Shown: positions 3,352-39,226 of the stretch, piece after piece
How the letters are laid out: each line of letters opens with the position of its first letter
Numbering within the stretch: the stretch's first letter is position 1
From: Oligoflexales bacterium
GTDB taxonomy: Bacteria > Bdellovibrionota_B > Oligoflexia > Oligoflexales > Bog-1112
Reading direction: 5' to 3'
Assembly (NCBI GenBank): GCA_017985985.1
Contig: JAGNWK010000019.1
Coordinates: 1 to 39,226, forward strand
Length of the DNA: 39,226 bases
The notes under the pieces: model-generated
What the model saw: the letters and a program-made list of their open reading frames with translations, nothing else
What the model was told of the DNA's origin: nothing
The model's database searches: none
Translations under genes and position numbers: made by a program

Positions 3352-3405
3352 TCCAATTATACTAAGAAACTATCCCACAAGTCATCTAGCACTCTTTTCG
3401 TCAGT

Positions 3406-4523: not shown

Positions 4524-4678
4524 CAATGTCATTTGGTTAAGGTGGAATTCCTCACCTGCCTGTCTTGTTTTAACTCGATACCTCTCGACTTCGCTCGAGG
4601 TGACAGCGTTTTAACTGGTAGGGACGACGTCACCCCGAGCGAAGTCGAGGGGTATCGGAGCTTAACCGAATGACATTG
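4524..4678. mobile_element. MITE-like nested palindromic element (family 2), flanked by an 8-bp direct repeat GCGATCAG
   Basis: The outer inverted repeat is caatgtcattYggttaag. The inner inverted repeat is ctcgataccYctcgacttcgctcgRggtgac with a ~35 bp spacer. The element is immediately flanked by ggcgatcagg on both sides, which looks like a target-site duplication. Confidence 0.6.
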
Positions 4679-5323
4679 GCGATCAGTGGAGCTCATACGT
4701 AACCATCAATTACAATCTATAAATAGAGAAATAAAATGCGTGGAAAAAGTATTTTAAGTCTTTTTCTCCTATTTATTAGCCCTAACGCCTTCTCCAATAA
4801 AACAGTACAAAGACATCCGTCTTTAGCCCACGCTCCTTCCGCAACTCCGTAGATTGCACCAAGAAAGAGCTCAGAACGAATTGTTTTTATCCGTGACAGA
4901 AGAGATCGCTCTATTAGTTTACCACATCTACTCGCTGCGCTAGTTCAAAATGGCCAAATCATCTCTACAAGCGAACTATCGACTGTATATTTACTAAGTC
5001 AAGCACAGGTCCGACTCTATTTGCCACATTTTAGGTCTGAATTAGCCAGTCGTTTCTGAGATTGCCACAACTGCCATTCTTACCTCACCCAACCTTTACT
5101 ACTTTACCTGATTTGCCCCCAAAATAGCACCCTTGTGGGATTGGAGCTTAATTCCATTTCTATAAAACTTTATGCGAGAGACAAAATTATGCGGGAGACA
5201 AAACAATGACCATATCTTATGTCAAGGCAAGATTTCTAAAGCAACAGAAGCACTTTTTAAGATCTGTTGCTGTTAAAATCGACAATGGCATGAACTATTT
5301 AGCTAAGCGATCATTACCAATGA

Positions 5324-8381: not shown

Positions 8382-8410
8382 ATTTTATCCTATTAAAAAT
8401 CTATTTCTGT

Positions 8411-8468
8411 TTTATAATTCTCGGCCGAAATCCTCAAAGGGGAGGATTTCGGCCGAGAATTATAAAAC
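8411..8468. terminator. Perfect 28-bp-arm inverted repeat (hairpin) between hemH and the receiver gene
   Basis: tgttttataattctcggccgaaatcctc / loop aaagg / gaggatttcggccgagaattataaaaca. The palindrome is perfect but no clear U-tract follows on either strand. It may be a terminator or attenuator for hemH, or a protein-binding site. Confidence 0.4.
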
Positions 8469-8473
8469 AGGCC

Positions 8474-10861: not shown

Positions 10862-10919
10862 CACCCCCACCATCAAACAAGGAGGGGGCGAAGGAAACCA
10901 GCTGCGCAGTTTGTCCCCC
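10862..10919. repeat. REP-like palindromic element (family 4; core GGAAACCAGCTGCGCAGTTTGTCCCC) in the NfeD-stomatin intergenic spacer
   Basis: The core shares the palindrome ..aaccagctgcgcagttt.. with copies at 27097, 30393, 31931, 33677 and 36201/36259. Confidence 0.55.
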
Positions 10920-10923
10920 TGAA

Positions 10924-11679
10924 ATGAATCTAAATGAGGTTTTTATGATGTTCTTCATGTTTTTTGTATCTCTGGCTGTGGTCGTTCTTTTCAACACAGT
11001 CAAAATACTAAACGAATACGAGCGAGCTGTTATTTTTCGGCTCGGTCGTTACACCGGGGTCCGAGGTCCTGGTCTTATCATACTCGTTCCTGGACTCGAG
11101 AAGATGAGAAGGGTAGATCTTCGAACAGTCACCCTAGACATCCCCTCTCAAGACATTATCACTCGCGATAACGTAACTCTAAAGGTCAATGGGGTGGTTT
11201 ACTTCAGAGTGGATAGACCCGAAAAATCTGTCATCTCTGTTGAGGACTATCTCAATGCAACTGGTCAGATCGCCCAGACAACCCTCCGTTCTGTTATCGG
11301 ACAATTCGAGCTTGATGAAATTCTATCTCAACGCGATAAGATTAACGCAAAGCTCCAACTTATCTTGGACGAACACACAGACCCTTGGGGGATCAAGGTC
11401 AGCGTTGTGGAAGTAAAAGCGATCGATCTTCCTATTGAAATGCAACGAGCCATGGCTAAACAAGCTGAAGCTGAAAGAAATAAGCGGGCAAAAGTGATCT
11501 CTGCAGAGGGCGAGCTGAATGCTGCCTATAAGCTTGCTGAGGCGGCCCAAATCTTAGGGACTCAAAAAAATGCTATTGTTCTTCGCTACCTAGACACCAT
11601 GAAAGAAATATCGACGGGAGAAGGGAAAACGACGACATTCTTCCCGCTACCCCTTGATTTCATCTCAAAATTAGGCTGA
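10924..11679 (+). CDS. SPFH/band-7 protein, stomatin-like (paraslipin)
   Basis: ..[76 protein letters not shown].. is a canonical stomatin/QmcA sequence. The better start is probably the ATG at 10945, which has a GAGG 5 nt upstream. Confidence 0.85.
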
Positions 11680-11811
11680 GAGGGCTGTCCAGGTCACACA
11701 TAAGCCTATGACTTACCTAGATAAATTAGATTAACTTTCTTTTCCTAAATATAATCCCCATAAGTTCCGAAGTTCTCCCTTAGAGATGTGTATAGAAAAA
11801 GAGAGAATTTC

Positions 11812-13362
11812 ATGCTTATGAGAAGGCTCAAGTTCATAGTCGCGCATATAGGCCGGTTTGTTCTGGTTCCGGCTGTTTTATCCTCTTTTTTGCTTTCCTG
11901 TAATGGAAAAAATTCGAGCGAGATCATCGATTCTATAGATGCAGCTCAAGTTCAACCGGATCAAAGCTCAAATAGCGATGACGCCTTTGCCAGCACAGAC
12001 CTTGCCAACGTCCAAGTTGTTAGCAAAGGATCTAGTATAAAAAACCTCCTGACTCTCCCTGACTGTGTTCCTGCCCAATATGGAAAAGTGATGTTTAGAA
12101 GTCTAGACTCTAAATTTCTCTATTGTCATAACCCCAAGCAGTGGGATGAAATCGACCTCAGAGGCAACGGAGGAGTTGCAGGGGCTGCAGGAACTCAAGG
12201 TAAGGCTGGTATTGACGGTATCCGGGGAGAAGACGGTCCAACCGGTCCTCAGGGCGATCAGGGAGCCAGGGGAGAGACAGGTGTCCCTGGTGTACAAGGG
12301 ATAAAAGGCACTCAAGGTCCTCAGGGAGAAAGGGGACCTGCAGGGGCTGTAGGGGCTGCTGGAGCAACAGGGCCTAAGGGAGATCAAGGTGTTCAGGGTC
12401 TTGAAGGACTTAAGGGTCCCGACGGTCCCCAAGGACCAGTTGGAGCAGCTGGAAACCTGGCTGGAGATAAGGGAGATGCAGGGAGTGCAGGCCCAGAGGG
12501 AGATCAGGGTATACCAGGCGTTGCCGGTGACAAAGGGGCAACCGGACCCAAGGGAGCAACCAGTACTGTAATTGGAGCTGTAGGGGATACAGGTCCGCAA
12601 GGTACACAAGGTTTGCCTGGAACTAGCGGTACAGAACGTGGCGACGTAGGGGCAATGGGTATCAAAGGCATTCAAGGCATTCAAGGCATTGCAGGCATTC
12701 AAGGCATTGCAGGCATTCAAGGCATTCAGGGCCTCAAAGGCTTTCAAGGGCCTCAAGGTCTGCAAGGGGTGAAAGGAGCAGAGGGTCCTACTGGTTCCCA
12801 AGGTGCAGTTGGAGACAAGGGATTGACAGGAGCTCAGGGAGGTAAGGGCCCTCAAGGGAGCCAGGGTGTAGTTGGTGACCAAGGTCCCCAAGGGGCAAAA
12901 GGAGCTACGGGTCTGTCAGGAAAATCTCTTCTTGTCAAAGACAGTTCGTCTTCTACCTTGTTGGGTGCATTCGTTTCCTATGGCAACCCATTTGACTCAG
13001 CAGATAGAGAGACCATCCTTGTTTACAATGATGCAGCTGATCTTGTTTTTCCCGTCAGTTCAAGTGGAAAACTTATCGATGTACCGAGCTCAACAAGCTT
13101 CATGTACTGGGAGAAAGACGGGTGCACTGGAGCTCCTTCCATTCAACTCCCTATGCCACTTGTCTTCGAGATAGCTTTCACAAGAGGCTCTGAAACTTAT
13201 AGGGTCGTTTCTCTCAATCGACCTTCTGTTCGGTCTTATACAAATGCATCCAACAGCTGTATCACTGTACCTAGCCAGCAGATCACCAACACCTATCTTG
13301 TCGAATCCACAAGTGACATCCCTAGCACGTACGCAGCACCACTCACCTACATCGTTGAATAG
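11812..13362 (+). CDS. Collagen-like triple-helix repeat lipoprotein with a non-collagenous C-terminal domain
   Basis: Signal peptide with lipobox (LLSC). There are about 250 aa of uninterrupted Gly-X-Y (GNGGVAGAAGTQGKAGIDGIRGEDGPTGPQGDQG...). A perfect 9-bp tandem repeat (ggcattcaa/ggcattgca) encodes GIQGIQGIAGIQGIAGIQGIQG at 12667-12732. A ~150 aa C-terminal globular part follows. The ORF-track start at 11788 is GTG; ATG 11812 is preferred. Confidence 0.75.
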   Translation: MLMRRLKFIVAHIGRFVLVPAVLSSFLLSCNGKNSSEIIDSIDAAQVQPDQSSNSDDAFASTDLANVQVVSKGSSIKNLLTLPDCVPAQYGKVMFRSLDSKFLYCHNPKQWDEIDLRGNGGVAGAAGTQGKAGIDGIRGEDGPTGPQGDQGARGETGVPGVQGIKGTQGPQGERGPAGAVGAAGATGPKGDQGVQGLEGLKGPDGPQGPVGAAGNLAGDKGDAGSAGPEGDQGIPGVAGDKGATGPKGATSTVIGAVGDTGPQGTQGLPGTSGTERGDVGAMGIKGIQGIQGIAGIQGIAGIQGIQGLKGFQGPQGLQGVKGAEGPTGSQGAVGDKGLTGAQGGKGPQGSQGVVGDQGPQGAKGATGLSGKSLLVKDSSSSTLLGAFVSYGNPFDSADRETILVYNDAADLVFPVSSSGKLIDVPSSTSFMYWEKDGCTGAPSIQLPMPLVFEIAFTRGSETYRVVSLNRPSVRSYTNASNSCITVPSQQITNTYLVESTSDIPSTYAAPLTYIVE

Positions 13363-13397
13363 CGCTATTATTATGCGCACAGCTGGTTCCCCTTTTC

Positions 13398-14612
13398 CTA
13401 AGGTTGATCGTAAACAAATGGAGAGGAGAAATAATGATTAGTCCTTGCGTAGGGATGCAGTGGGGGGGGAGGGGGAGGCAAAATCGCTGTATTCCCATAA
13501 AGAGACCCTGCAGTCGCTGCCGTTGATACAGGAGGAAGCTCAGCCTCGACATTTCGCTTGATAGCAAAAACTAAAATACCCATAGGCTTTGTTGCAGATA
13601 GTCGAATATAAAATCGTTCTTGGTCATGAGAAAGGTAACTTGTCCATGTTGAAGATGCCGCTTCGACAAACAGCTCCATGTAAGGATACAGTGCTGGCAC
13701 CATATCCCGATATTGGGCAAGGCTAGCTCTTGTGAGCTGCAAAGCCTGGTAGGTGGATAGATCACCTTTAACTGTGCTCATGGCATAGCGATGAGCATGA
13801 ATGGAGGTCATAGCAACCGCATCGTGAATTCTATGCCCAAAAAAATTGTACTTATCTAGATTAAGTAAATGAGCGTCGATGCGAAATGGGGATGTGGGCA
13901 GAAGAGGTTCATCGAGTACGAATCCCCCTACGCTTTTACGTTTTATACACCCTAGAAGAAGCCTGGGATTTACCAAAATCCTGACGTTTGTGGCTCTGTT
14001 AAAAATTCCCATTAAAAGCCCATCTAGAGCAGGCTTCTGATCTCGAGGCACACTGTCATAAAGCCAGGTCTCAGCGACACTCTGAGCTATGATTTTGTCA
14101 CCGGTCGACTTCAATGGACAAGACACCCTTGTTAGAAGCTGATAGACAGCTACACTAGTTCCTACAAGAATGGCACAGGCCGAGATAAAACTGACGATAA
14201 TGCCAAGATAAGTCGTAAACGAGGCTAGGTTTGTCTCCTGGTTAGTGGATATATTGGCATTAGAAGAGGGACTAGCTGCTGCCGTGACGTTTACTGATAC
14301 ACCGATGGGTGATGGTGATGGTGATGGTGATGGTGATGGTGATGGTGATGGTGATGGTGATGGTGATGGTGATGGTGATGGTGATGGTGATGGTGATGGT
14401 AAAACTTCTTCAGGTGTTTGTGCATGAGCTTCACCAAAATTTGAGAACCAGTGCAAGGACAACTGTGTAGCTACCTGCAAGGAAGAGAGTTCGCGAGAAA
14501 ACTGCGGAGTTGGTTTCTCCCAAGAAAGAAACGCTAAGCAGATGAGAAGAAAGAATAAAAAAATATTTCCTTTTGACATTTTTTTCGATGGACAGTTTTT
14601 TGCCTGCAACAT
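13398..14612 (-). CDS. Hypothetical membrane protein with an (SP)16 linker
   Basis: Signal peptide (MSKGNIFLFFLLICLAFLSW from ATG 14579), then (SP)16 encoded by (tcacca)n, a TM helix and a ~260 aa C-terminal domain of unknown function. A poly-Pro tail is encoded over a G8 tract at 13462-13469. Confidence 0.5.
   Translation of the reverse strand: MLQAKNCPSKKMSKGNIFLFFLLICLAFLSWEKPTPQFSRELSSLQVATQLSLHWFSNFGEAHAQTPEEVLPSPSPSPSPSPSPSPSPSPSPSPSPSPSPSPIGVSVNVTAAASPSSNANISTNQETNLASFTTYLGIIVSFISACAILVGTSVAVYQLLTRVSCPLKSTGDKIIAQSVAETWLYDSVPRDQKPALDGLLMGIFNRATNVRILVNPRLLLGCIKRKSVGGFVLDEPLLPTSPFRIDAHLLNLDKYNFFGHRIHDAVAMTSIHAHRYAMSTVKGDLSTYQALQLTRASLAQYRDMVPALYPYMELFVEAASSTWTSYLSHDQERFYIRLSATKPMGILVFAIKRNVEAELPPVSTAATAGSLYGNTAILPPPPPPLHPYARTNHYFSSPFVYDQP
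14308..14400. repeat. Hexanucleotide microsatellite (GGTGAT)~15.5, coding for the (SP)n linker of the 13398..14612 CDS
   Basis: Perfect tandem hexamer visible in the sequence. It preserves the reading frame. Confidence 0.9.
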
Positions 14613-17957: not shown

Positions 17958-18000
17958 ATGTCATTCGGTTAAAAATCGAGACTTCGCTCGTAGTGACGGG
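17958..18000. repeat. Partial family-2 palindromic element (outer inverted repeat plus one inner arm), flanked by ~27-bp imperfect direct repeats
   Basis: atgtcattcggttaaaaatcgagacttcgctcgtagtgac matches the 4524-4678 element. gagtagcacagcactctatgagtcaccc (17931-57) and gagtggcatagcactctatccgtccccc (18010-36) are direct repeats. Confidence 0.45.
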
Positions 18001-18091
18001 ACTCCAGATGAGTGGCATAGCACTCTATCCGTCCCCCATCCCGATGACGTCCAAATGGAAGACACGACTAACCATAGAAAGCCAGACTGAA

Positions 18092-23624: not shown

Positions 23625-24046
23625 CAGCTTCCTAGTGGAAATACCTGAGAAGTTCTCCCTAGTTCCTCCTTGCCTGAGACGTTCACCCTAGTTTTTGAAT
23701 AGCTAACCCGGACCCTTGACCCGCGACCAAGTCCATTGGGCAAGTTGGGCTTCTCCAAAGTCAGTTCGAGGCTGGCAATATCCGCATAGCGAATCAGCAG
23801 TTCGTCAGCAAAGTGGGCCAAGACCGATTCTATAAGATTGAACGAACGCCCCTCTAAGATTTCTTCTGCAGCATGCATGAGTTTGCCATAATCCAGAGTC
23901 GAAGAGATCTCATCACGAAGCAAGGCAAAATCTCGTTCCGTCAATTTTGCACGGATTGAGATCAAAACATCCTGACCAGTTTTTTTTTCTTCTGGAAAAA
24001 TACCCAGCCTCATAAAGACTGGGTAATCTAAAATTTCTAAAACCAT
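23624..24046 (-). CDS. folB: Dihydroneopterin aldolase
   Basis: MVLEILDYPVFMRLGIFPEEKKTGQDVLISIRAKL..DYGKL.. fits the FolB signature. Its stop overlaps the cytochrome start by 1 nt (ATGA). Confidence 0.7.
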   Translation of the reverse strand: MVLEILDYPVFMRLGIFPEEKKTGQDVLISIRAKLTERDFALLRDEISSTLDYGKLMHAAEEILEGRSFNLIESVLAHFADELLIRYADIASLELTLEKPNLPNGLGRGSRVRVSYSKTRVNVSGKEELGRTSQVFPLGS

Positions 24047-24970: not shown

Positions 24971-25106
24971 GATTTTCTTATCTCCTAAAATAAAGCTGGA
25001 TAAGCCAGCCATAATGCAGAAACAGCCTGCATGTTATACTATAAGTCGCTATGAGGCAAAGTAAAGGGGCTAGCTTAAAATTCTTACAGGCAGGGCCTTC
25101 ATCTTA

Positions 25107-25227
25107 GGAACCATCCCACAAGTCGTATAGCAAGGCATTGGGGAGCAATCAGTGCAGTTTACTGGATGGTAAATGAGCAGCGCAGCGACGAAAATAACGC
25201 AGCTACACGACTTGTGGGATGGTTCCT
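25107..25227. mobile_element. MITE-like element family 1, copy A (~121 bp, 21-bp terminal inverted repeats)
   Basis: Terminal inverted repeats aggaaccatcccacaagtcgt ... acgacttgtgggatggttcct with an ~80 bp core. Its terminal ..cctag supplies the TAG stop of the adjacent CDS 25226..25726. Confidence 0.7.
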
Positions 25228-25726
25228 AGGCCGTCGACAGCATGCTTTTCAAAAGGAGCCGCTGATAGGTAGAGAGGGTCATAAGCCCTTCGTCCTCAAA
25301 AAGACTGGAGTGCACGCGAGGTCTGGTTAAAACCTGCTGTGGTTCGTAAATGTTTACAAGATCAAATGGCTGCCCCTTTCGCATAAAGACATCCTGATCC
25401 ACAATTTTTTCACTCTGCGAGACTAGCCAACCATGAGGCGATTGTTCAAAAAGCCAGCCGAGCGTATTTCTTGGCCTAAGATAAAAATACCTTCTCGAAA
25501 ACGCAAGCAGTCCAGACTCGTAAAAAAGAGGAGCTGAAGAGTGCTCTCGAGGAAGCTCTTTGAACTGAGTGTAGATGGAGTGTTTCAGCTTCAAAAAAAT
25601 CTTATCTCGCAGCTCTTCATCTATCAGCAGATTGTAGCGAACAGATAATGCCGACGACAAGGGATCACCTGATTTTGAATCTGGCCGCTTCTTCTCAATT
25701 ATAAAATGCCTAAGTCGCTCCAACAT
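25226..25726 (-). CDS. Hypothetical protein (166 aa)
   Basis: ORF with no recognisable domain. Its 3' end abuts or overlaps MITE copy A, so its C-terminus may have been altered by the insertion. Confidence 0.4.
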   Translation of the reverse strand: MLERLRHFIIEKKRPDSKSGDPLSSALSVRYNLLIDEELRDKIFLKLKHSIYTQFKELPREHSSAPLFYESGLLAFSRRYFYLRPRNTLGWLFEQSPHGWLVSQSEKIVDQDVFMRKGQPFDLVNIYEPQQVLTRPRVHSSLFEDEGLMTLSTYQRLLLKSMLSTA

Positions 25727-26034: not shown

Positions 26035-26718
26035 ATGACCAGTCTCTTAAAATTAGCGAGTTTTCCCATCGGAAATCTCGCCTGCAATTGCTCCGTTATT
26101 TATTCCAGTCAGACTCGAGAAGCGATCGCCATCGACCCCGGCAATGACGCCGACTCCTTTTTAAAAAAAATAAAAACCCTCGATGTTCAGGTTAAATATC
26201 TCCTACATACCCACGCCCACTTCGATCACATCGGCCACTCTGACATTGTGCGAACAAAGATTGGCGCCCCACTACACCTCCACAAGGATGATCTTTTCTT
26301 GTACAGAGCCCTCCGTGAGCAGGGCCTGTTCTTTGGGCAGCAGGTGGGAGAACCCGGAGAAGTCGATCACTACATAGAAGACGAAGAAGAATATAAGATT
26401 CAAGTCCAAAATCTAGAGATCAAAGATCAAGGACTTCAGACCATCCTCAAAACCATACACACCCCCGGACATACCCCCGGCTCTTGCAGCTTCTATACAG
26501 AACTTTTGGAAGACGGCCCCATGCTCTTCACAGGGGACACTCTTTTTTCTGGGACGATAGGCCGCACAGACCTACCGGGTGGAGACTTCCACCAGCTGAT
26601 ACATTCCATCCAAACCAGAATTCTTAAACTCCCTGAAGAAACCACCTGCATACCAGGCCATGGTGCCCAAACAACACTCTCCAATGAAAAGCGATACAAT
26701 CCTTTCCTCAAAAAATAG
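26035..26718 (+). CDS. MBL-fold hydrolase (glyoxalase II / GloB-like)
   Basis: HTHAHFDHIGH (HxHxDH) and the downstream motifs ..TPGHTPGS.. and ..FTGDTLF.. are typical of hydroxyacylglutathione-hydrolase-like MBL proteins. Confidence 0.75.
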   Translation: MTSLLKLASFPIGNLACNCSVIYSSQTREAIAIDPGNDADSFLKKIKTLDVQVKYLLHTHAHFDHIGHSDIVRTKIGAPLHLHKDDLFLYRALREQGLFFGQQVGEPGEVDHYIEDEEEYKIQVQNLEIKDQGLQTILKTIHTPGHTPGSCSFYTELLEDGPMLFTGDTLFSGTIGRTDLPGGDFHQLIHSIQTRILKLPEETTCIPGHGAQTTLSNEKRYNPFLKK

Positions 26719-26793
26719 TCCATCTCTACTGATGCTATAATAGCAACGAGTCATCACTTGAAAAATTCCAAGTTATAGCAAAAGAAGCAAAGA

Positions 26794-27081
26794 ATGGAAA
26801 ACAGCGTAGAAGGAAAAGAAAAAGGCAATTGTCGATGCCCACATCATAAAATGAAGGGTATTTTCATCGCTCTGGCAGGGTTAGCTTATTTGCTGGGGAA
26901 TCTCGAAATCATTTCCATGCACATGGCTCATAATATTTGGCCTATACTGATCATCCTTTTCGGATTGATGAAGTCCTTCGGTAACAATATTTGCAAATGC
27001 TGCACACCTAGCTCAGCTGGAGGAAAGTGCTGTGACTCCAATAACTGCTCCTGCTCCTGCAAGTGTTGCAAGAAAAGCTAA
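26794..27081 (+). CDS. Small Cys-rich membrane-associated protein (95 aa)
   Basis: N-terminal NCRCPHH, one hydrophobic helix, and a C-terminal tail with 11 Cys in 33 aa (CKCCTPSSAGGKCCDSNNCSCSCKCCKKS). Metallothionein-like or peptide-like, no firm family. Confidence 0.4.
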   Translation: MENSVEGKEKGNCRCPHHKMKGIFIALAGLAYLLGNLEIISMHMAHNIWPILIILFGLMKSFGNNICKCCTPSSAGGKCCDSNNCSCSCKCCKKS

Positions 27082-27096
27082 CATGTAGTTCCCCCC

Positions 27097-27122
27097 TGGG
27101 GAACCAGCTACGCAGTATCCCC
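27097..27122. repeat. REP-like palindromic element (family 4)
   Basis: ggggaaccagctacgcagtatcccc lies immediately after the stop of 26794..27081. Confidence 0.5.
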
Positions 27123-27287
27123 GACGCTGACTTTGCATCAGCCCTGCCATATAACCAATAGAATCTACCACTTACTGACTTTTTTAAAATCTATTTGATT
27201 TTATTACCAACATTAACTATAATATAACTATTAAAATGATTTTAAATAATATTCCATTGGAATCTTGTTTTTTGAAAAGGACAGATT

Positions 27288-34687: not shown

Positions 34688-36187
34688 ATGTCTGATCTTA
34701 TGAATAAGCTTATTTCCTTGTGCAAAAGAAGAGGTTTTATTTTTCAGAGCAGCGAAGTCTATGGTGGACTGAAGTCCTGCTACGACTACGGCCCTCTCGG
34801 TGTTGAGCTCAAGAAGAACATTGCTCAAGCCTGGTGGAAGAACATGGTCTATGAGCGAGACTCCATCTATGGGATGGACGCTTCGATCCTCATGCACAGC
34901 GATGTTTGGAAAGCTTCTGGCCACCTTGCTAATTTCAGCGATCCCCTTGTCGACTGCCTCACATGCCAAGAGAGATTCCGTGCTGATAAGGCTCCAAAAC
35001 ATGAGCCAGGACTGGATATAACCTACGGACTAAAGGAGAAGAAAAAAGGACAGGTCGGCCCCCAAGGCTACGTCTGTCCACGCTGTAGCTCCCCCTCTCT
35101 CAGTGACGAGAGACAGTTCCGTTTGATGTTCCGCAGTACAATAGGCCCGGTAGATCCTCTGAACGAGCTCGTCGACAAACACTATGGTCAACTCAGTTTA
35201 GCTGAGTTTAAATCTAAACTGAGCGAACTAGAGCTCTCAGCTAGCAGCGTTTACTTGAGACCTGAAACTGCTCAGGCTATGTTCGTCCAATTTCTTAATG
35301 TCCAGCAAAGCATGTCTGCTAAAGTTCCGTTCGGAATAGCTCAGTGTGGCAAAGCCTTCCGTAATGAAATCATCACCGAACATTTCATATTCCGGTCTTG
35401 TGAGTTCGAGCAGATGGAACTCGAATTCTTCTGTGAACCTGGAAGCCAAACGGAATGGATGGAATACTGGAAGCAAGAACGTATGAACTGGCATAAGATC
35501 TACGCTCGTCATCCAGAAAACTACAGACTCCGAGCCCACGACAAGGGGGAACTGGCCCACTACTCCGATGGTTGCTTCGACGTTGAATATAAGTACCCCT
35601 GGGGATGGGATGAACTCGAGGGCATTGCGTCTCGAACTGATTTTGATCTATCGAGTCACAGCAAGAAGTCCGGAGCCAAGCTCAGCTACTTCGACCCCCA
35701 AAAAACAGACCCAGCAACTGGCAAAACTGGGTGGAGGTATACACCTTATGTGATTGAACCCTCTCTTGGACTCACACGTTCTGTGCTCTGCTTCCTCCTC
35801 GACGCTTACTGCGAAGAAGGGAAACCAGCAAAGGAAGGAGAGGAAGGAGGAGACAAAACCAGAATCGTACTCAAACTCCATCCTCAACTCGCTCCTTACA
35901 AAGCAGCTGTGCTGCCTCTTGTCAAAAAAGATGGTCAGCCAGAATTTGCTAAAGACCTCGTCTCCCAGTTTAGGAAGAAGGGAATCCCGGTGAGTTATGA
36001 CGAGAATAATTCTATTGGAAAGCGCTATGCACGACACGATGAAATTGGTACCCCGTTCTGTATAACGATCGATCAGAAAACCATCGAAGATGGATCTGTG
36101 ACCCTAAGAGATCGTGATAGCACCCTACAAGAGCGTCTCCCTGCGGGAGCTGCCTTGGAGCGTGTGCTTGAACGCCTCAACACCTAG
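34688..36187 (+). CDS. glyQS: Glycine--tRNA ligase, alpha2 (class II, eukaryote/archaeal-like) type
   Basis: ..LCKRRGFIFQSSEVYGGLKSCYDYGPLGVELKKNIAQAWW.. is the canonical N-terminus of dimeric GlyRS. Class II motifs and a C-terminal anticodon-binding domain are present. The preferred start is ATG 34688; the ORF-track start at 34670 is TTG. Confidence 0.85.
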   Translation: MSDLMNKLISLCKRRGFIFQSSEVYGGLKSCYDYGPLGVELKKNIAQAWWKNMVYERDSIYGMDASILMHSDVWKASGHLANFSDPLVDCLTCQERFRADKAPKHEPGLDITYGLKEKKKGQVGPQGYVCPRCSSPSLSDERQFRLMFRSTIGPVDPLNELVDKHYGQLSLAEFKSKLSELELSASSVYLRPETAQAMFVQFLNVQQSMSAKVPFGIAQCGKAFRNEIITEHFIFRSCEFEQMELEFFCEPGSQTEWMEYWKQERMNWHKIYARHPENYRLRAHDKGELAHYSDGCFDVEYKYPWGWDELEGIASRTDFDLSSHSKKSGAKLSYFDPQKTDPATGKTGWRYTPYVIEPSLGLTRSVLCFLLDAYCEEGKPAKEGEEGGDKTRIVLKLHPQLAPYKAAVLPLVKKDGQPEFAKDLVSQFRKKGIPVSYDENNSIGKRYARHDEIGTPFCITIDQKTIEDGSVTLRDRDSTLQERLPAGAALERVLERLNT

Positions 36188-36200
36188 CCGCCCCCACCTA

Positions 36201-36311
36201 CCTAGCAAGGAGTGGTTTGGGGAAACTGCGCAGCTGGTTCCCCAAGAAAACGCCTGTTCTAGCAAGGAGGGGTTTGGGGAAACTGCGCAGCTGGTTCCCC
36301 AAGAGAACCCC
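36201..36311. repeat. Two tandem REP-like palindromic elements (family 4) downstream of glyQS
   Basis: ctagcaaggagtggtttggGGAAACTGCGCAGCTGGTTCCccaagaaaacg occurs twice in tandem (36201-36252 and 36259-36311). The core is a perfect palindrome around CAGCTG. Confidence 0.7.
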
Positions 36312-36343
36312 TAACCGCAAGAGCCGCAGAAGAAAGAAAAGAA

Positions 36344-37729
36344 GTGAGTTCGAACGATTTTAAAACATTGAATTTAAGTGCCCCACTACTGTCTAGTCTC
36401 GACGATTTGGGTTATGTCCGCATGACCCCCATTCAAGAGCAGTGCCTTCCCCACGTCCTGGGGAAAAGAGATCTCATCGCTCAAGCTAAAACAGGCAGCG
36501 GCAAAACAGCGGCTTTTGCACTCGGTCTCTTGAATCAAATAGATGTGACACGAGATAAAATTCAAGGTTTAGTCCTCTGCCCAACCAGAGAACTCGCAGA
36601 TCAGGTCGGCAATGAAATCCGTCGTCTTGCTAAGTTTATACCGAACGTCAAGGTCCTCACCCTCTGTGGGGGAAGACCCCTACGTCCACAGGCAGCTTCT
36701 CTTGATTATGGAGCTCACATCATCGTGGGCACACCAGGAAGAATCGATGACCACCTCGGTAAAGAGACGATCAACTTCGATGATCTCAAAATCCTTGTCC
36801 TAGACGAAGCTGATAGAATGCTTGACATGGGTTTCTATGAGATCATCTCATCGATCATCCAAGCTTTGCCGAAGAGAAGACAAACGCTACTATTCTCTGC
36901 CACCTACCCTGATACTATCAAACAAATGAGTGCGGACTTCCAAGATAAACCCATAGAAGTGAAGTTGGCATCTCATCATAGCGCTGACAATATCAAGCAA
37001 GGCTACTTTGTCGTAAAAAACGAAGAGGACAGACTCCTATGCGTGAAAACCATACTGTCTCAGCACGAGTTCAACTCATCGATCGTTTTTTGCACCACAA
37101 AAGTACAGTGTGATGACCTTGTCCACGAACTGCAGGATATAGGCTTACAGGCTCTAGCCATCCATGGAGATCTCGAGCAAAGAGACAGGGAGGAAGTGCT
37201 CGTCCTCTTTGCTAATAAAACCTGCACCATTCTCGTCGCGACTGACGTAGCCTCCCGCGGTTTGGATATCAAGGATGTTGAGCTTGTGCTGAACTACCAG
37301 CTCGCCAGAAGTCCTGAAATCTATGTCCACCGTATTGGACGAACGGGTCGAGCGGACAGCAAAGGGCAAGCCTTCAGCTTAGTGACCAACTATGAACAGC
37401 GACGAATTGCTGAGATCGAAGCCTATCAAAAAGCACCGATCCCCTGTGAAGAATTGGGCAAATTGCCAAAAATAAAAACCACGGGCAAGTCCAAGATGGC
37501 GACTCTTAAGATTGCCGGTGGTCGTAAAAATAAGATCTCTAAAGGGGATATACTAGGCGCCCTCACTAGCAGCGGTTCGACGATCACGGGCAGTGACGTC
37601 GGAAAGATCGATATCTTCGACTTTCACTCTTATGTCGCCATGGAGGAACAATTCTGCACCAAGGCTCTTCAGATTTTAAACGACAAACCCATCAAAGGGC
37701 GTTCGTTCAAAGTCAAAAGGGTTTTCTGA
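36344..37729 (+). CDS. dbpA: ATP-dependent DEAD-box RNA helicase, DbpA type
   Basis: Q-motif, AKTGSGKT (Walker A), PTRELA, DEAD (VLDEADRM), SAT and HRIGRTGR are all present. A C-terminal DbpA RNA-binding domain is present (..GDILGALTSSGSTITGSDVGKIDIFDFHSYVAMEEQF..). GTG start. Confidence 0.85.
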   Translation: MSSNDFKTLNLSAPLLSSLDDLGYVRMTPIQEQCLPHVLGKRDLIAQAKTGSGKTAAFALGLLNQIDVTRDKIQGLVLCPTRELADQVGNEIRRLAKFIPNVKVLTLCGGRPLRPQAASLDYGAHIIVGTPGRIDDHLGKETINFDDLKILVLDEADRMLDMGFYEIISSIIQALPKRRQTLLFSATYPDTIKQMSADFQDKPIEVKLASHHSADNIKQGYFVVKNEEDRLLCVKTILSQHEFNSSIVFCTTKVQCDDLVHELQDIGLQALAIHGDLEQRDREEVLVLFANKTCTILVATDVASRGLDIKDVELVLNYQLARSPEIYVHRIGRTGRADSKGQAFSLVTNYEQRRIAEIEAYQKAPIPCEELGKLPKIKTTGKSKMATLKIAGGRKNKISKGDILGALTSSGSTITGSDVGKIDIFDFHSYVAMEEQFCTKALQILNDKPIKGRSFKVKRVF

Positions 37730-37804
37730 TAGGTGTGAGCGCCATCCCTTTCTCACCGCCAATATCACTGAGGAATGGGCCGCCCCTATTTGTTTGTTCA
37801 TTTA

Positions 37805-38048
37805 AACTCGAGACCCATTCGACTTCGTCCGCCTATGGTGGACTTCGCTCAGGGTGACAGGGCTTTAAGTAATAGCGACAAAAGTCACCCCGAATGAAGT
37901 CGAGGGGTATCGACCCTTAACTGAATGACATCACTCCCCCAGCTCTTTTAGGTGACAGGGCTTTAAGTAATAGCACAAACGTCACCCCGAGCGAAGTCGA
38001 GGGGTATCGATCCTTAACTGAATGACATCACTCCCCCAGCTCTTTTAT
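37805..38048. mobile_element. Family-2 palindromic element with a tandemly duplicated ~95-bp right half
   Basis: ggtgacagggctttaagtaatagcRacaaaMgtcaccccgaRYgaagtcgaggggtatcgaYccttaactgaatgacatcactcccccagctctttta occurs twice in tandem, preceded by a left arm with cgacttcg..ggacttcgctcagggtgac. It lies between dbpA and the prohibitin gene. Confidence 0.6.
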
Positions 38049-38052
38049 CTGC

Positions 38053-38937
38053 CTAACGAACTTTGAGATCACCGATAGGAAGAAGAATATTCGCTGCGCC
38101 GCCAGAACTTCCTCCACCACCGACAACGAGTGGTGATATCCCGTTCCACTTCTCCACAATTTGCAGCTGCACAAGACCTGGACTATCTTGTAAAGCTTTA
38201 CCGCGGACACGTATGGCTTCTGCTTCTCCGTTCGCACGAATGATAGCTGTACTTGCTTCGATCTCAGCTTTTTGCTGAATAAACTTAGCTTTTGCAGCTT
38301 CTTGTTCTTGAACCATTTTAGCTTCGATGGCAGCTTCCAATTCTTTAGAGAGAGTGACGTTTTGAATCACGATATCTTCGATGACTATCAAGTCACCCAC
38401 CTTGTTTCTGGCTGCTGCTAAAGCTTTGATTTTAACGTCTTCACGTCTCTTCACGATGTGCTCAGCACTTTGCAGCGCTCCCACCTCTTTGAGAGCCTCA
38501 CTGACCCGGGGTGCAATCAAACTGTCAAAAGGATCCCCTGCATAGTCTTGGAAGATCCTCACAATCATACTTTCAGGGAAGCGATAAAGAACTTTGAGTT
38601 CAATGTTGATTTGCTGCAAATCAGATGAATAGCAGTCCTCTCGCATAGACTGCGTCTGCTGCCGCACAGAAATCGGCAAGACACTTGTGATCATCGGAGT
38701 TTTAAAGCCCAGACCTTCAGGTGCAAAAATAGGAGAAACTTTCCCCATCGTCACCAAAACCCCACGATGCCCTGGAGGGATGACAAAATAGCCGCCAAAA
38801 ATCAAGAAGGTTCCAGCGAGAAGCAGTATCAAGCCTCCTACCACTGTTTTATTAACTTTGAGATTATTTAAAAACTGATCAAATTCGTCCAAAACATACT
38901 CCTCATTCGTTTCAAAAAATGGATCAAAAAAGAACAT
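38053..38937 (-). CDS. SPFH/band-7 protein, prohibitin/HflC-like
   Basis: N-terminal TM helix (TVVGGLILLLAGTFLIFGGYFVIPPGHRGVLVTMGKV), a PHB domain, and a C-terminal coiled-coil rich in A/E/K (..LSKELEAAIEAKMVQEQEAAKAKFIQQKAEIEAS..). Confidence 0.75.
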   Translation of the reverse strand: MFFFDPFFETNEEYVLDEFDQFLNNLKVNKTVVGGLILLLAGTFLIFGGYFVIPPGHRGVLVTMGKVSPIFAPEGLGFKTPMITSVLPISVRQQTQSMREDCYSSDLQQINIELKVLYRFPESMIVRIFQDYAGDPFDSLIAPRVSEALKEVGALQSAEHIVKRREDVKIKALAAARNKVGDLIVIEDIVIQNVTLSKELEAAIEAKMVQEQEAAKAKFIQQKAEIEASTAIIRANGEAEAIRVRGKALQDSPGLVQLQIVEKWNGISPLVVGGGGSSGGAANILLPIGDLKVR

Positions 38938-39226
38938 CCGTAGAATAACACTTTATCAAGAGTTTTAACACCAGGCTTATGGGACTGTTTATAACTAAGA
39001 ATATCCTTAGTTATTTCAGCATGTTGTTCATATCCTTTGGCGTTGTTGCACAAAGAAATTGTTGAATGACAAGGGATTCGAGCTGTCTAGATCCTATGTA
39101 ACTTTATAACTCTGAGGCATTCCTAGCTGGGTCATCTTGTTGAGGATGGATGAACGAATCCTGGCTTCTGTTACCTGACGAGAGAATTCCCGAGATTTTA
39201 ATTTGTCCCCGAGAATTTGTTTCTGT

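Follow-up and report, generated by a model that had tools for sequence, protein, structure and literature searches.

The 39,226-nucleotide stretch of an Oligoflexales bacterium considered here (the whole of contig JAGNWK010000019.1 of assembly GCA_017985985.1; hereafter the window) carries a short palindromic repeat in its intergenic spacers, with ten full or partial copies at nine sites where chance predicts none. An initial annotation, made from the letters of the window, had described this repeat as an abundant palindrome at gene ends that resembles the repetitive extragenic palindromic (REP) sequences. Its repetition in the window is borne out, and all of the sites that had been listed (10893, 13375, which is a 3' half only, 27097, 30393, 31931, 33677 and 36201/36259) are genuine. 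The term 'REP-like' is also a fair one for a short imperfect palindrome of high copy number that is extragenic, lies near stop codons and occurs in both orientations. Copies were sought by mismatch matching with a 25-mer and a 17-mer, with shuffle controls, site-by-site reading and a covariance model trained on copies from other genomes alone, the window copies being excluded from training. With up to three mismatches, the 25-mer GGGGAAACTGCGCAGCTGGTTCCCC has four occurrences in the window against none in 100 shuffles, and the 17-nt right half has eight matches against 0.09 expected. All window copies are intergenic or touch just the final codons of an open reading frame (ORF), with a stop codon 6-25 nt away, and each unit of about 48 nt contains a hairpin of 25-31 nt, which places it within the 20-40 nt size range of REP palindromes.

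The best preserved copies form a tandem pair of 54-nt units (36202-36255 and 36259-36312) that are 94% identical to each other, each containing one exact 25-mer (36219-36243 and 36276-36300, both on the plus strand). The first (36205-36252, plus strand; covariance model 65.4 bits, E = 2.4e-12) begins 18 nt past the stop codon of the glycine-tRNA ligase gene (ORF 34670-36187) and consists, in order, of GCAAGGAGT, a spacer, the hairpin GGGGAAACTGCGCAGCTGGTTCCCC and the tail AAGAAAAC. The second (36262-36309, plus strand; 69.5 bits, E = 3.4e-13) lies about 35 nt upstream of a DbpA-type DEAD-box helicase ORF and consists of GCAAGGAGG, a spacer, a hairpin identical to that of the first and the tail AAGAGAAC; folded as single-stranded DNA it reaches -15.6 kcal/mol (z = -4.7). 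The intact window copies fold well as single-stranded DNA, and several of the others have decayed stems. One of these, at 33667-33713 on the minus strand (48.3 bits, E = 9e-9), is located between two minus-strand genes, bears the 5' motif GTAAGGAGG and a variant of the 25-mer at 33676-33700, and has lost the folding of its outer stem (AGAGAA/TTCCCT). A further minus-strand copy (27089-27136; E = 1.2e-3), which begins 16 nt past the stop codon of a LiaF-like ORF, contains a variant core, GGGGATACTGCGTAGCTGGTTCCCC, at 27098-27122 and does not have the GCAAGGAGG flank.

Two further copies bear an insert and are inverted with respect to each other. The first (30403-30473, plus strand; E = 1.3e-3) has 27 additional nucleotides that separate AAAC(C) from TGCGCAG in the hairpin top, and is followed at 30477-30499 (plus strand) by a partial tandem duplicate of the 3' half, ACAGCCGGTTCCCCAGAAAAC, found by repeat comparison and site reading. 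The second (31917-31987, minus strand; a weak model match, E = 0.45) covers the last codons and the stop of the minus-strand ORF 31956-32675 and lies just upstream of a lipoprotein-like gene. The inverted copies that the initial annotation had seen around this gene are real, with 71-nt arms at 30402-30472 and 31918-31988 that are 87% complementary. Since both carry the same 27-nt insert, exactly between AAAC and TGCGCAG, the insert variant was copied, and the two members of the pair are most plausibly copies belonging to a single insert-bearing subfamily. The intervening gene was considered as a transposase and rejected, as it has no Pfam match and a lipoprotein-like signal (LLIAC), and the units that bracket it face inward. 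The remaining copies comprise a member of a second subfamily, GCAAGGAAGAGAGTTCGCGAGAAAACTGCGGAGTTGGTTTCTCCCAAGAAAG, in a divergent spacer at 14477-14528 (plus strand; 38.7 bits, E = 1e-6), which was absent from the initial list; a 3' half alone, CGCACAGCTGGTTCCCC, between two convergent genes at 13376-13392 (plus strand; 17-mer match and site reading); and a rearranged copy at 10877-10928 (plus strand; E = 0.09) in the spacer between NfeD and SPFH/Band_7 genes, in which the 5' motif ACAAGGAGG is on the plus strand and the asymmetric hairpin top, at 10896-10912, is in minus orientation (E = 2e-3). A marginal model match at 23626-23673 on the minus strand (E = 0.027) resembles an ordinary ribosome-binding region and was rejected as a repeat copy.

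Stable GC-rich hairpins located 6-25 nt past stop codons could be Rho-independent terminators reused as a gene-end module, and the initial annotation had proposed a terminator role. This role did not hold up, since neither strand of the intact copies has a run of T after the stem, the tails (AAGAAAAC and AAACCCCTCC) being A-rich or C-rich, and a terminator scan of 26500-39226 calls no intact copy. Copies are also found inside the rpsG-fusA operon and in divergent spacers, and several window copies no longer fold. A family of terminators is therefore a most improbable explanation.

Confinement of the motif to the window, which the initial annotation had named as telling against it, is not what was found: among the matches listed, the exact 21-mer core occurs in more than 111 contig stretches of other genomes. 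Nearly all of these listed stretches belong to three metagenome-assembled genomes (MAGs) labelled 'Deltaproteobacteria bacterium', JACPKR01, from groundwater, and CANIBL01 and CANJLI01, which are isolates RE-9nov16-152 and RH-23may17-178. The core is also present in two Clostridia MAGs (JAZTXD01 and JAFTTS01), a handle-to-core pattern matched 44 metagenome contigs, and the 21-mer gave no match in viral contigs. The carriers are uncultured freshwater and groundwater bacteria, together with some gut Clostridia. The sequence examined amounts to 1.29 Mb, to which JACPKR01 contributes about 665 kb, in 85 blocks of 8 kb, and the other genomes smaller portions; the 665 kb of JACPKR01 alone contain at least 140 copies. 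Short-read contigs of the window's own organism end within this repeat and within its other repeats, as would be expected of repeats present there in many copies. The window's glycine-tRNA ligase has relatives that carry the labels Oligoflexales, Oligoflexus sp., Bdellovibrionota and Deltaproteobacteria. Between the window and JACPKR01, orthologous proteins share just 44-62% identity, and no copy was found in about 43 kb of relatives that share 70% glycine-tRNA ligase identity; from these two observations the family is old or horizontally spread, and patchy in its distribution. The Clostridia copies (L058:269-690 and ~7617; L037:2440-2520) share the 21-nt hairpin top, with GCAAGGAGG 27-28 nt upstream, and have longer and different stems (GAGGGG...CCCCTC). 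They lie in spacers of ordinary cellular genes (ThiI, a PolyA_pol-family nucleotidyltransferase, ComEC and fucose isomerase), and one of them is a 378-bp outward-facing doublet.

An alignment of about 200 copies, pooled from all sources, defines the anatomy of the unit. Conservation begins sharply at GCAAGG and stops after AAGAAA, a span of about 48 nt, and the polarity is fixed, with the 9-nt handle GCAAGGAGG followed by a short spacer, an imperfect hairpin and an A-rich tail. When copies from four genome groups were chosen by the core alone, the handle was found on one side of it in 146/148 copies of JACPKR01, 19/20 of CANJLI01, 11/16 of CANIBL01 and 2/3 of the Clostridia, and in these four groups it was never mirrored on the opposite side. 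Its distance from the foot of the hairpin is 0-5 nt, reaching 28 nt in Clostridia copies. The hairpin top, GGAAAC-TGCGCAGC-TGGTTCC, is invariant, with fixed A.G and T.T mismatches and a GCA triloop (in base order, G-G-A-A-A-C-T-G-C-[GCA]-G-C-T-G-G-T-T-C-C), and both the top and the 5' handle are invariant between the Bdellovibrionota-like MAGs and the gut Clostridia. The outer stem varies freely so long as it remains paired, the 57 distinct stems comprising 1,675 Watson-Crick pairs and no more than 13 mismatches. Across 12 named pairs in 68 distinct copies, 92.5% are paired, compared with 77.4 +/- 0.8% in shuffles and 34-61% in slid controls, and double-change cells number 125 against 38.8 in the shuffles of these copies; the inner pair 15-21 is found in all four Watson-Crick forms (G-C, C-G, A-T and T-A). 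The hairpin must therefore form, since its stems co-vary. In every case the left arm is purine-rich (GGAGG-like) and the right arm CCTCC-like. Integron attC sites were considered and set aside, since the arms GGGGAAAC and GGTTCCCC do not fit RYYYAAC and GTTRRRY; copies are also dispersed in both orientations, whereas attC sites form arrays of one orientation beside intI. The reverse strand (GGAACC..TGCG..CACCTCCTT) presumably resembles the 3' end of 16S rRNA (helix 45 and the anti-Shine-Dalgarno (anti-SD) sequence), a likeness that we treat as a lead and not as evidence, the roles being different.

These features allow a different explanation, namely that the repeat is a host element acting at the level of RNA, either as a hairpin that protects or processes 3' ends or as a binder of 30S subunits or of SD sequences, a stabiliser of the STAB-SD type or a decoy, that would act through the perfect SD-like GCAAGGAGG(T)G or, on the other strand, through its anti-SD-like complement CACCTCCTTGC. 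Stabilisation of mRNA was among the roles suggested in the initial annotation. STAB-SD of the Bacillus cryIIIA gene is a single, orientation-dependent mRNA stabiliser of the 5' untranslated region whose SD-like sequence has no role in translation start; the present repeat shares a perfect SD-like sequence with it and differs in being dispersed and in its random gene orientation. The 9-mer agrees with the canonical SD consensus and shows no variation among Bdellovibrionota-like and Clostridia copies, and complementarity to the 16S rRNA 3' end would account for the conservation of this flank across phyla. Stop codons lie within about 6-35 nt, so that copies fall inside transcripts, and copies are present within the rpsG-fusA and NfeD-Band_7 operons; the co-varying stems and their uniformly purine-rich, GGAGG-like left and CCTCC-like right arms are likewise in keeping with a role of this kind.

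Against this, the element, although directional, is oriented at random with respect to the genes around it (<E< 40, >E> 28, >E< 33 and <E> 21, where E is the element), which means that the SD-like form would be present in one half of the transcripts and the anti-SD-like form in the other. Orientation relative to local GC skew is similarly unbiased (64 vs 49, p = 0.19), and from these counts no polarity linked to transcription or replication is visible. Copies between divergent genes make up 17% of the total, such promoter-bearing spacers being mildly under-represented. The distance from the motif to the next start is unconstrained, mostly exceeding 30 nt past the element, and because of this spacing the SD-like handle was rejected as the ribosome-binding site of a downstream gene. 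No conserved start codon follows the motif; at 10924, the database start of the Band_7 gene lies 21 nt further downstream, with GAGG a few bases before the ATG as read by eye. The balance of G.T and A.C mismatches in the stems, 6 vs 4, favours neither strand and was uninformative as a means of choosing between them. At the gathering threshold, Rfam release 15 identified nothing but tRNAs in the window and 14 related loci, and permissive Rfam scans of the element and of the CANJLI01 and Clostridia doublets returned chance-level matches only. An RNA-level host function is thus possible, although unlikely, as the explanation of the family.

The copies are organised in a manner reminiscent of amplifying populations. 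The outer stem is far more uniform inside one genome than between genomes and differs among subfamilies. In JACPKR01, 26 copies are identical across 52 nt, and the stem of this type, TTGGAGGA/TCCTCCAA, is common to 107 of the 225 unique copies from all loci examined. The dominant stem is TTGGGGAA/TTCCCCAA in the window, GTGGAA/TTCCAC in CANJLI01 and CTGGGGAA/TTCCCCAG in CANIBL01. The second subfamily (GCAAGGAAGRGAGTTTGAGRGAAAAC...) occurs in the window, JACPKR01, CANJLI01 and one metagenome contig (loci L007, L030 and L134 outside the window). Window and JACPKR01 copies are mostly singlets; in JACPKR01, 71 of 130 are solo and the other 59 are embedded in a fixed mosaic of about 150 nt with two further repeat modules, in which GTAATGCGTAAGCCACTTGGG precedes the unit and CTTGGGGGAGCGACGGTTCCCTCGCCCCCCCAAACCCCCCTCTCCC follows it (e.g. 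L006:2700-2850 and L020:6880-7030). The C-rich module of this mosaic is also found alone at 14 sites, an organisation similar to that of BIME and NIME repeats.

In CANJLI01, CANIBL01 and the Clostridia, the units additionally form outward-facing ('-+') doublets that cluster at 330-490 bp; there are none in the window, whose sole inverted pair faces inward. The REPINs of Pseudomonas, by comparison, are short-spacer REP doublets, much shorter than 330-490 bp. The CANJLI01 doublets (L017, L030, L035, L063, L067, L069, L070, L092, L094, L102 and L109; e.g. L070:5161-5727) are perfect head-to-head palindromes of about 480 bp with a hairpin unit at both ends, and the palindrome folds to -244 kcal/mol (z = -36). 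Their interior consists of two imperfect hairpin modules of about 170 nt, with compensatory differences between subtypes. One such doublet lies inside the rpsG-fusA spacer, and the element is present in the orthologous spacer of CANIBL01; the 41-nt terminal module is 100% identical between the two, and in an alignment read by eye identity is roughly 70% in the interior and roughly 90% in the flanking coding DNA.

The retention of this orthologous copy in two species, with its terminal module fully conserved, is in keeping with a DNA-structural host site, that is, a cruciform or hairpin bound by a protein that organises the chromosome or governs its topology and kept by selection on the host. 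The dispersed, intergenic placement and the invariance of the core across distant hosts point in the same direction, as does the fact that no transposase was found in the sequence examined. REP and BIME elements do bind gyrase and IHF; for the present repeat, we know of no candidate binding protein. Nevertheless, a host site would not be expected to be so patchy among relatives, absent at 70% glycine-tRNA ligase identity and present in Clostridia, and the subfamilies, recurring insert variants, mosaics and doublets together have the population structure of amplifying elements. A structural site of this kind is therefore improbable as an account of the repeat.

Rearrangement is a recurrent feature of these loci. 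In the window there is the tandem duplication of the whole unit (36202-36312), half copies and, at 10877-10919, a core flipped with respect to its flank; metagenome copies often have a tandem duplication of the 5' half (handle and left arm) or of the 3' half (from GCGCAG), and the 3'-half duplicate at 30477-30499 is of the same type as those in other genomes. Tandem units, half copies and flips are expected of a hairpin that stalls replication or recombines. The suggestion in the initial annotation that the repeats mark plastic spacers or recombination sites draws support from them and from the recurring 27-nt insert. In CANJLI01, 11 of 12 microsatellites in 94 kb lie no more than 8 nt from a hairpin, on its 3' side. 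They are composed of A-rich units of 3-7 nt (AAAAG, AAG, AAAGT and AAAAACT) in up to 23 copies and border doublets at both ends (L069:301-370; L109:707-761 and 1267-1291; L102:267-295 and 798-826).

These variable, A-rich tracts adjoining the hairpin are among the observations that would fit a third kind of element, in which the unit is the 3' module of a retroelement resembling the short interspersed nuclear elements (SINEs), or of a guide-RNA-like scaffold. A structured RNA, corresponding to the module of about 170 nt in CANJLI01 and ending in the hairpin and an A-rich tail, would be copied through RNA by slippage-prone priming at its tail, or would act as an outward-reading scaffold. The prevalence of the terminal module as the commonest solo form and the compensatory differences between subtypes of the internal module are compatible with this proposal. 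However, solo units have a constant 5' boundary, GCAAGG, without random truncation, and the doublets are perfect head-to-head palindromes. The other three genomes lack such microsatellites: CANIBL01 and JACPKR01 yielded none, and the window has just two, each over 100 nt away from the nearest core. The loci examined showed no reverse transcriptase, TnpB or IscB gene, in a scan for multi-copy ORFs that was neither systematic nor aimed at these genes. Copying through RNA, or a scaffold function, is accordingly very doubtful.

Taken together, the forming hairpin, the invariant top and handle, the lineage-variable stems and the intergenic placement in either orientation place first the explanation that the repeat is, on balance, probably a REP- or REPIN-like element, short, directional and non-autonomous, that would be mobilised or maintained in trans. 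A putative conserved trans-acting protein would recognise the folded single strand through the hairpin top and the 5' handle, and the same protein would copy or maintain the element. Master copies would be amplified within each genome, and the resulting units deployed singly, in tandem, in mosaics or as the ends of palindromic doublets of about 330-490 bp. Local hairpin-induced slippage and recombination would then give rise to half copies, flips, tandem duplications and, in one species, microsatellites, and consequences for the adjoining mRNAs, for example the protection or processing of 3' ends, would, if there are any, be secondary. Recognition of this kind may resemble, by analogy, the way in which HUH/Y1 enzymes, including the REP-associated tyrosine transposases (RAYTs) and the TnpA of IS200/IS605, read REP sequences and the ends of insertion sequences (ISs). 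The TnpA-REP protein binds REP as folded single-stranded DNA, comprising a conserved 5' tetranucleotide, GTAG, and an imperfect hairpin with mismatches (PMC3479197).

A number of observations weigh against a REP-like element. A RAYT (a Y1 HUH transposase, PF01797) is typically flanked by the REPs of its genome, but no RAYT or Y1 enzyme, IS200-like transposase or multi-copy transposase ORF was found in the 1.29 Mb, in which the genomes are partly covered. Regular expressions for the HUH...Y motifs retrieved no RAYT from the 4,598 ORFs of this sequence, nor did tblastn with an approximate E. coli YafM query, a weak match in L110 not being an ORF. The loci examined contain no high-identity multi-copy ORF that could be a candidate transposase or a parent IS, and those ORFs within longer outward-facing pairs that could be recognised by eye look like ordinary cellular genes (aldehyde-dehydrogenase-like, protein-kinase-like and Lgt-like, among others). 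Target-site duplication is not seen; no direct repeat flanks the solo units, and the flanks of doublets are inverted microsatellites, not direct repeats. Apparently 'empty' JACPKR01 mosaics were considered as a source of target-site duplications and ruled out, as the flanking modules are independent repeats. Likewise, no pair of filled and empty sites was recovered, the one orthologous site, rpsG-fusA, being filled in both species; a search for strain polymorphism through exact-protein matches yielded only same-organism contigs that are identical or end within repeats, and synteny with the 70%-identity relatives is lost. In addition, transposition through lagging-strand single-stranded DNA, of the IS200/IS605 kind, would predict the orientation bias relative to GC skew that is missing here (64 vs 49), the perfect SD-like sequence of the handle is a coincidence under a REP-like model, and uniformity within genomes could be explained by gene conversion.

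Comparison with known systems locates the family among interspersed palindromes of the REP, BIME, REPIN and MITE type, a known kind, while the family itself looks new; no paper describing it was found in a full-text literature search. As in the REP and BIME sequences of Enterobacteria, whose RAYT is TnpA-REP, the palindrome is short and imperfect, its mismatches are fixed and its foot has a conserved, single-stranded flank on the 5' side; copies number in the hundreds, are extragenic and close to the 3' ends of genes, and occur in either orientation, singly, in tandem or in mosaics. It differs in that the flank is the 9-mer GCAAGGAGG in place of GTAG, which is not present, in having one and the same hairpin top in different phyla, REP sequences being lineage-specific, and in that no RAYT was found in the 1.29 Mb. 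The REPIN-RAYT systems of Pseudomonas (Bertels & Rainey, PMC3116915, PMC3337134) are similar in their inverted doublets, in singlets that resemble doublet remnants, in within-genome populations with master sequences and subfamilies, and in long persistence in diverged hosts. The doublets described here, by contrast, measure 330-490 bp with structured inner modules of about 170 nt, and were seen only in CANJLI01, CANIBL01 and Clostridia.

[quoted passage not shown] Unlike MITEs, the present family has no target-site duplication, no related IS with the same ends was found, TIR-like ends exist only in doublets, and what is conserved is a hairpin under structural constraint, the stems of which co-vary, and not a plain TIR sequence. 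The subterminal hairpins of IS200/IS605 elements and of PATEs, their non-autonomous derivatives, also combine an imperfect hairpin with an adjacent guide-like flank that is recognised on one strand; there, however, the left-end and right-end hairpins lie on the same strand, whereas the doublet ends are inverted here, neither tnpA nor tnpB was found and no GC-skew orientation bias exists. The departures from known families are therefore the 9-nt SD-like handle, the cross-phylum top, the long structured doublets, the microsatellite-linked ends in one species and the lack of a visible RAYT.

In a further proposal, GCAAGGAGG and the hairpin would constitute a hitherto unrecognised, cross-phylum single-strand recognition system that is not based on a RAYT. 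The invariant irregular top would be read by a putative conserved protein, or by the ribosome or 16S 3' end through the SD-like handle, and larger structured palindromic elements, the ends of which can seed A-rich microsatellites, would bear the module as their terminal 'address'. This proposal is best regarded as speculative, and appears a shade less likely than an RNA-level host function.

Other repeats and several genes of the window were also noted. A second palindromic repeat family, with the core GTCACCCCGAGCGAAGTCGAGGGGTATCG, is located at 4575-4695, 17980-18018, 32720-32769 and 37841-38047, and includes a local inverted repeat (4576-4657) and two tandem units of about 97 nt (37841-38047); same-organism short-read contigs (L118-L121) appear to have one of these tandem units, which reflects either a difference in copy number or assembly collapse. 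A third, MITE-like repeat of about 125 nt (25105-25229 and 28267-28392, with partial copies at 2406-2460, 3364-3399 and 32878-32915) possesses TIRs of 27-28 nt (TAGGAACCATCCCACAAGTCGTATAGC) that are 96% complementary and 70 nt apart, and was not found in the other genomes examined. Its two near-identical copies, 3.2 kb apart, flank the region from tRNA-Gly to an OTU protease gene. Two adjacent genes (27288-28253 and 28399-30384) encode eukaryote-like proteins, with an OTU-like cysteine protease domain and leucine-rich repeats, respectively, which hint that this Oligoflexia-like organism may be a predator or associated with a host. A collagen triple-helix repeat protein (GXY, PF01391) is encoded at 11788-13362, where same-organism short-read contigs end inside the repeats, and the gene beside it contains 15 tandem GGTGAT units (14296-14412), which on the minus strand would encode a His-rich N-terminus, with a likely start at 14426. 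Finally, a perfect 29-nt inverted repeat with a 6-nt spacer (CTGTTTTATAATTCTCGGCCGAAATCCTC / GAGGATTTCGGCCGAGAATTATAAAACAG; 8407-8470), unrelated to the interspersed families, lies between a response-regulator-like ORF and the ferrochelatase gene.

To our knowledge, elements of the REP and REPIN type are among the few persistent bacterial repeats, and only those linked to RAYTs have a known engine. In the uncultured, Oligoflexia-like bacteria that carry them, the elements described here break short-read assemblies and point to spacers liable to duplication, to inversion and to the growth of microsatellites. The combination of an invariant handle and irregular top with a free stem offers a precise ligand with which the putative protein that reads them may be found.

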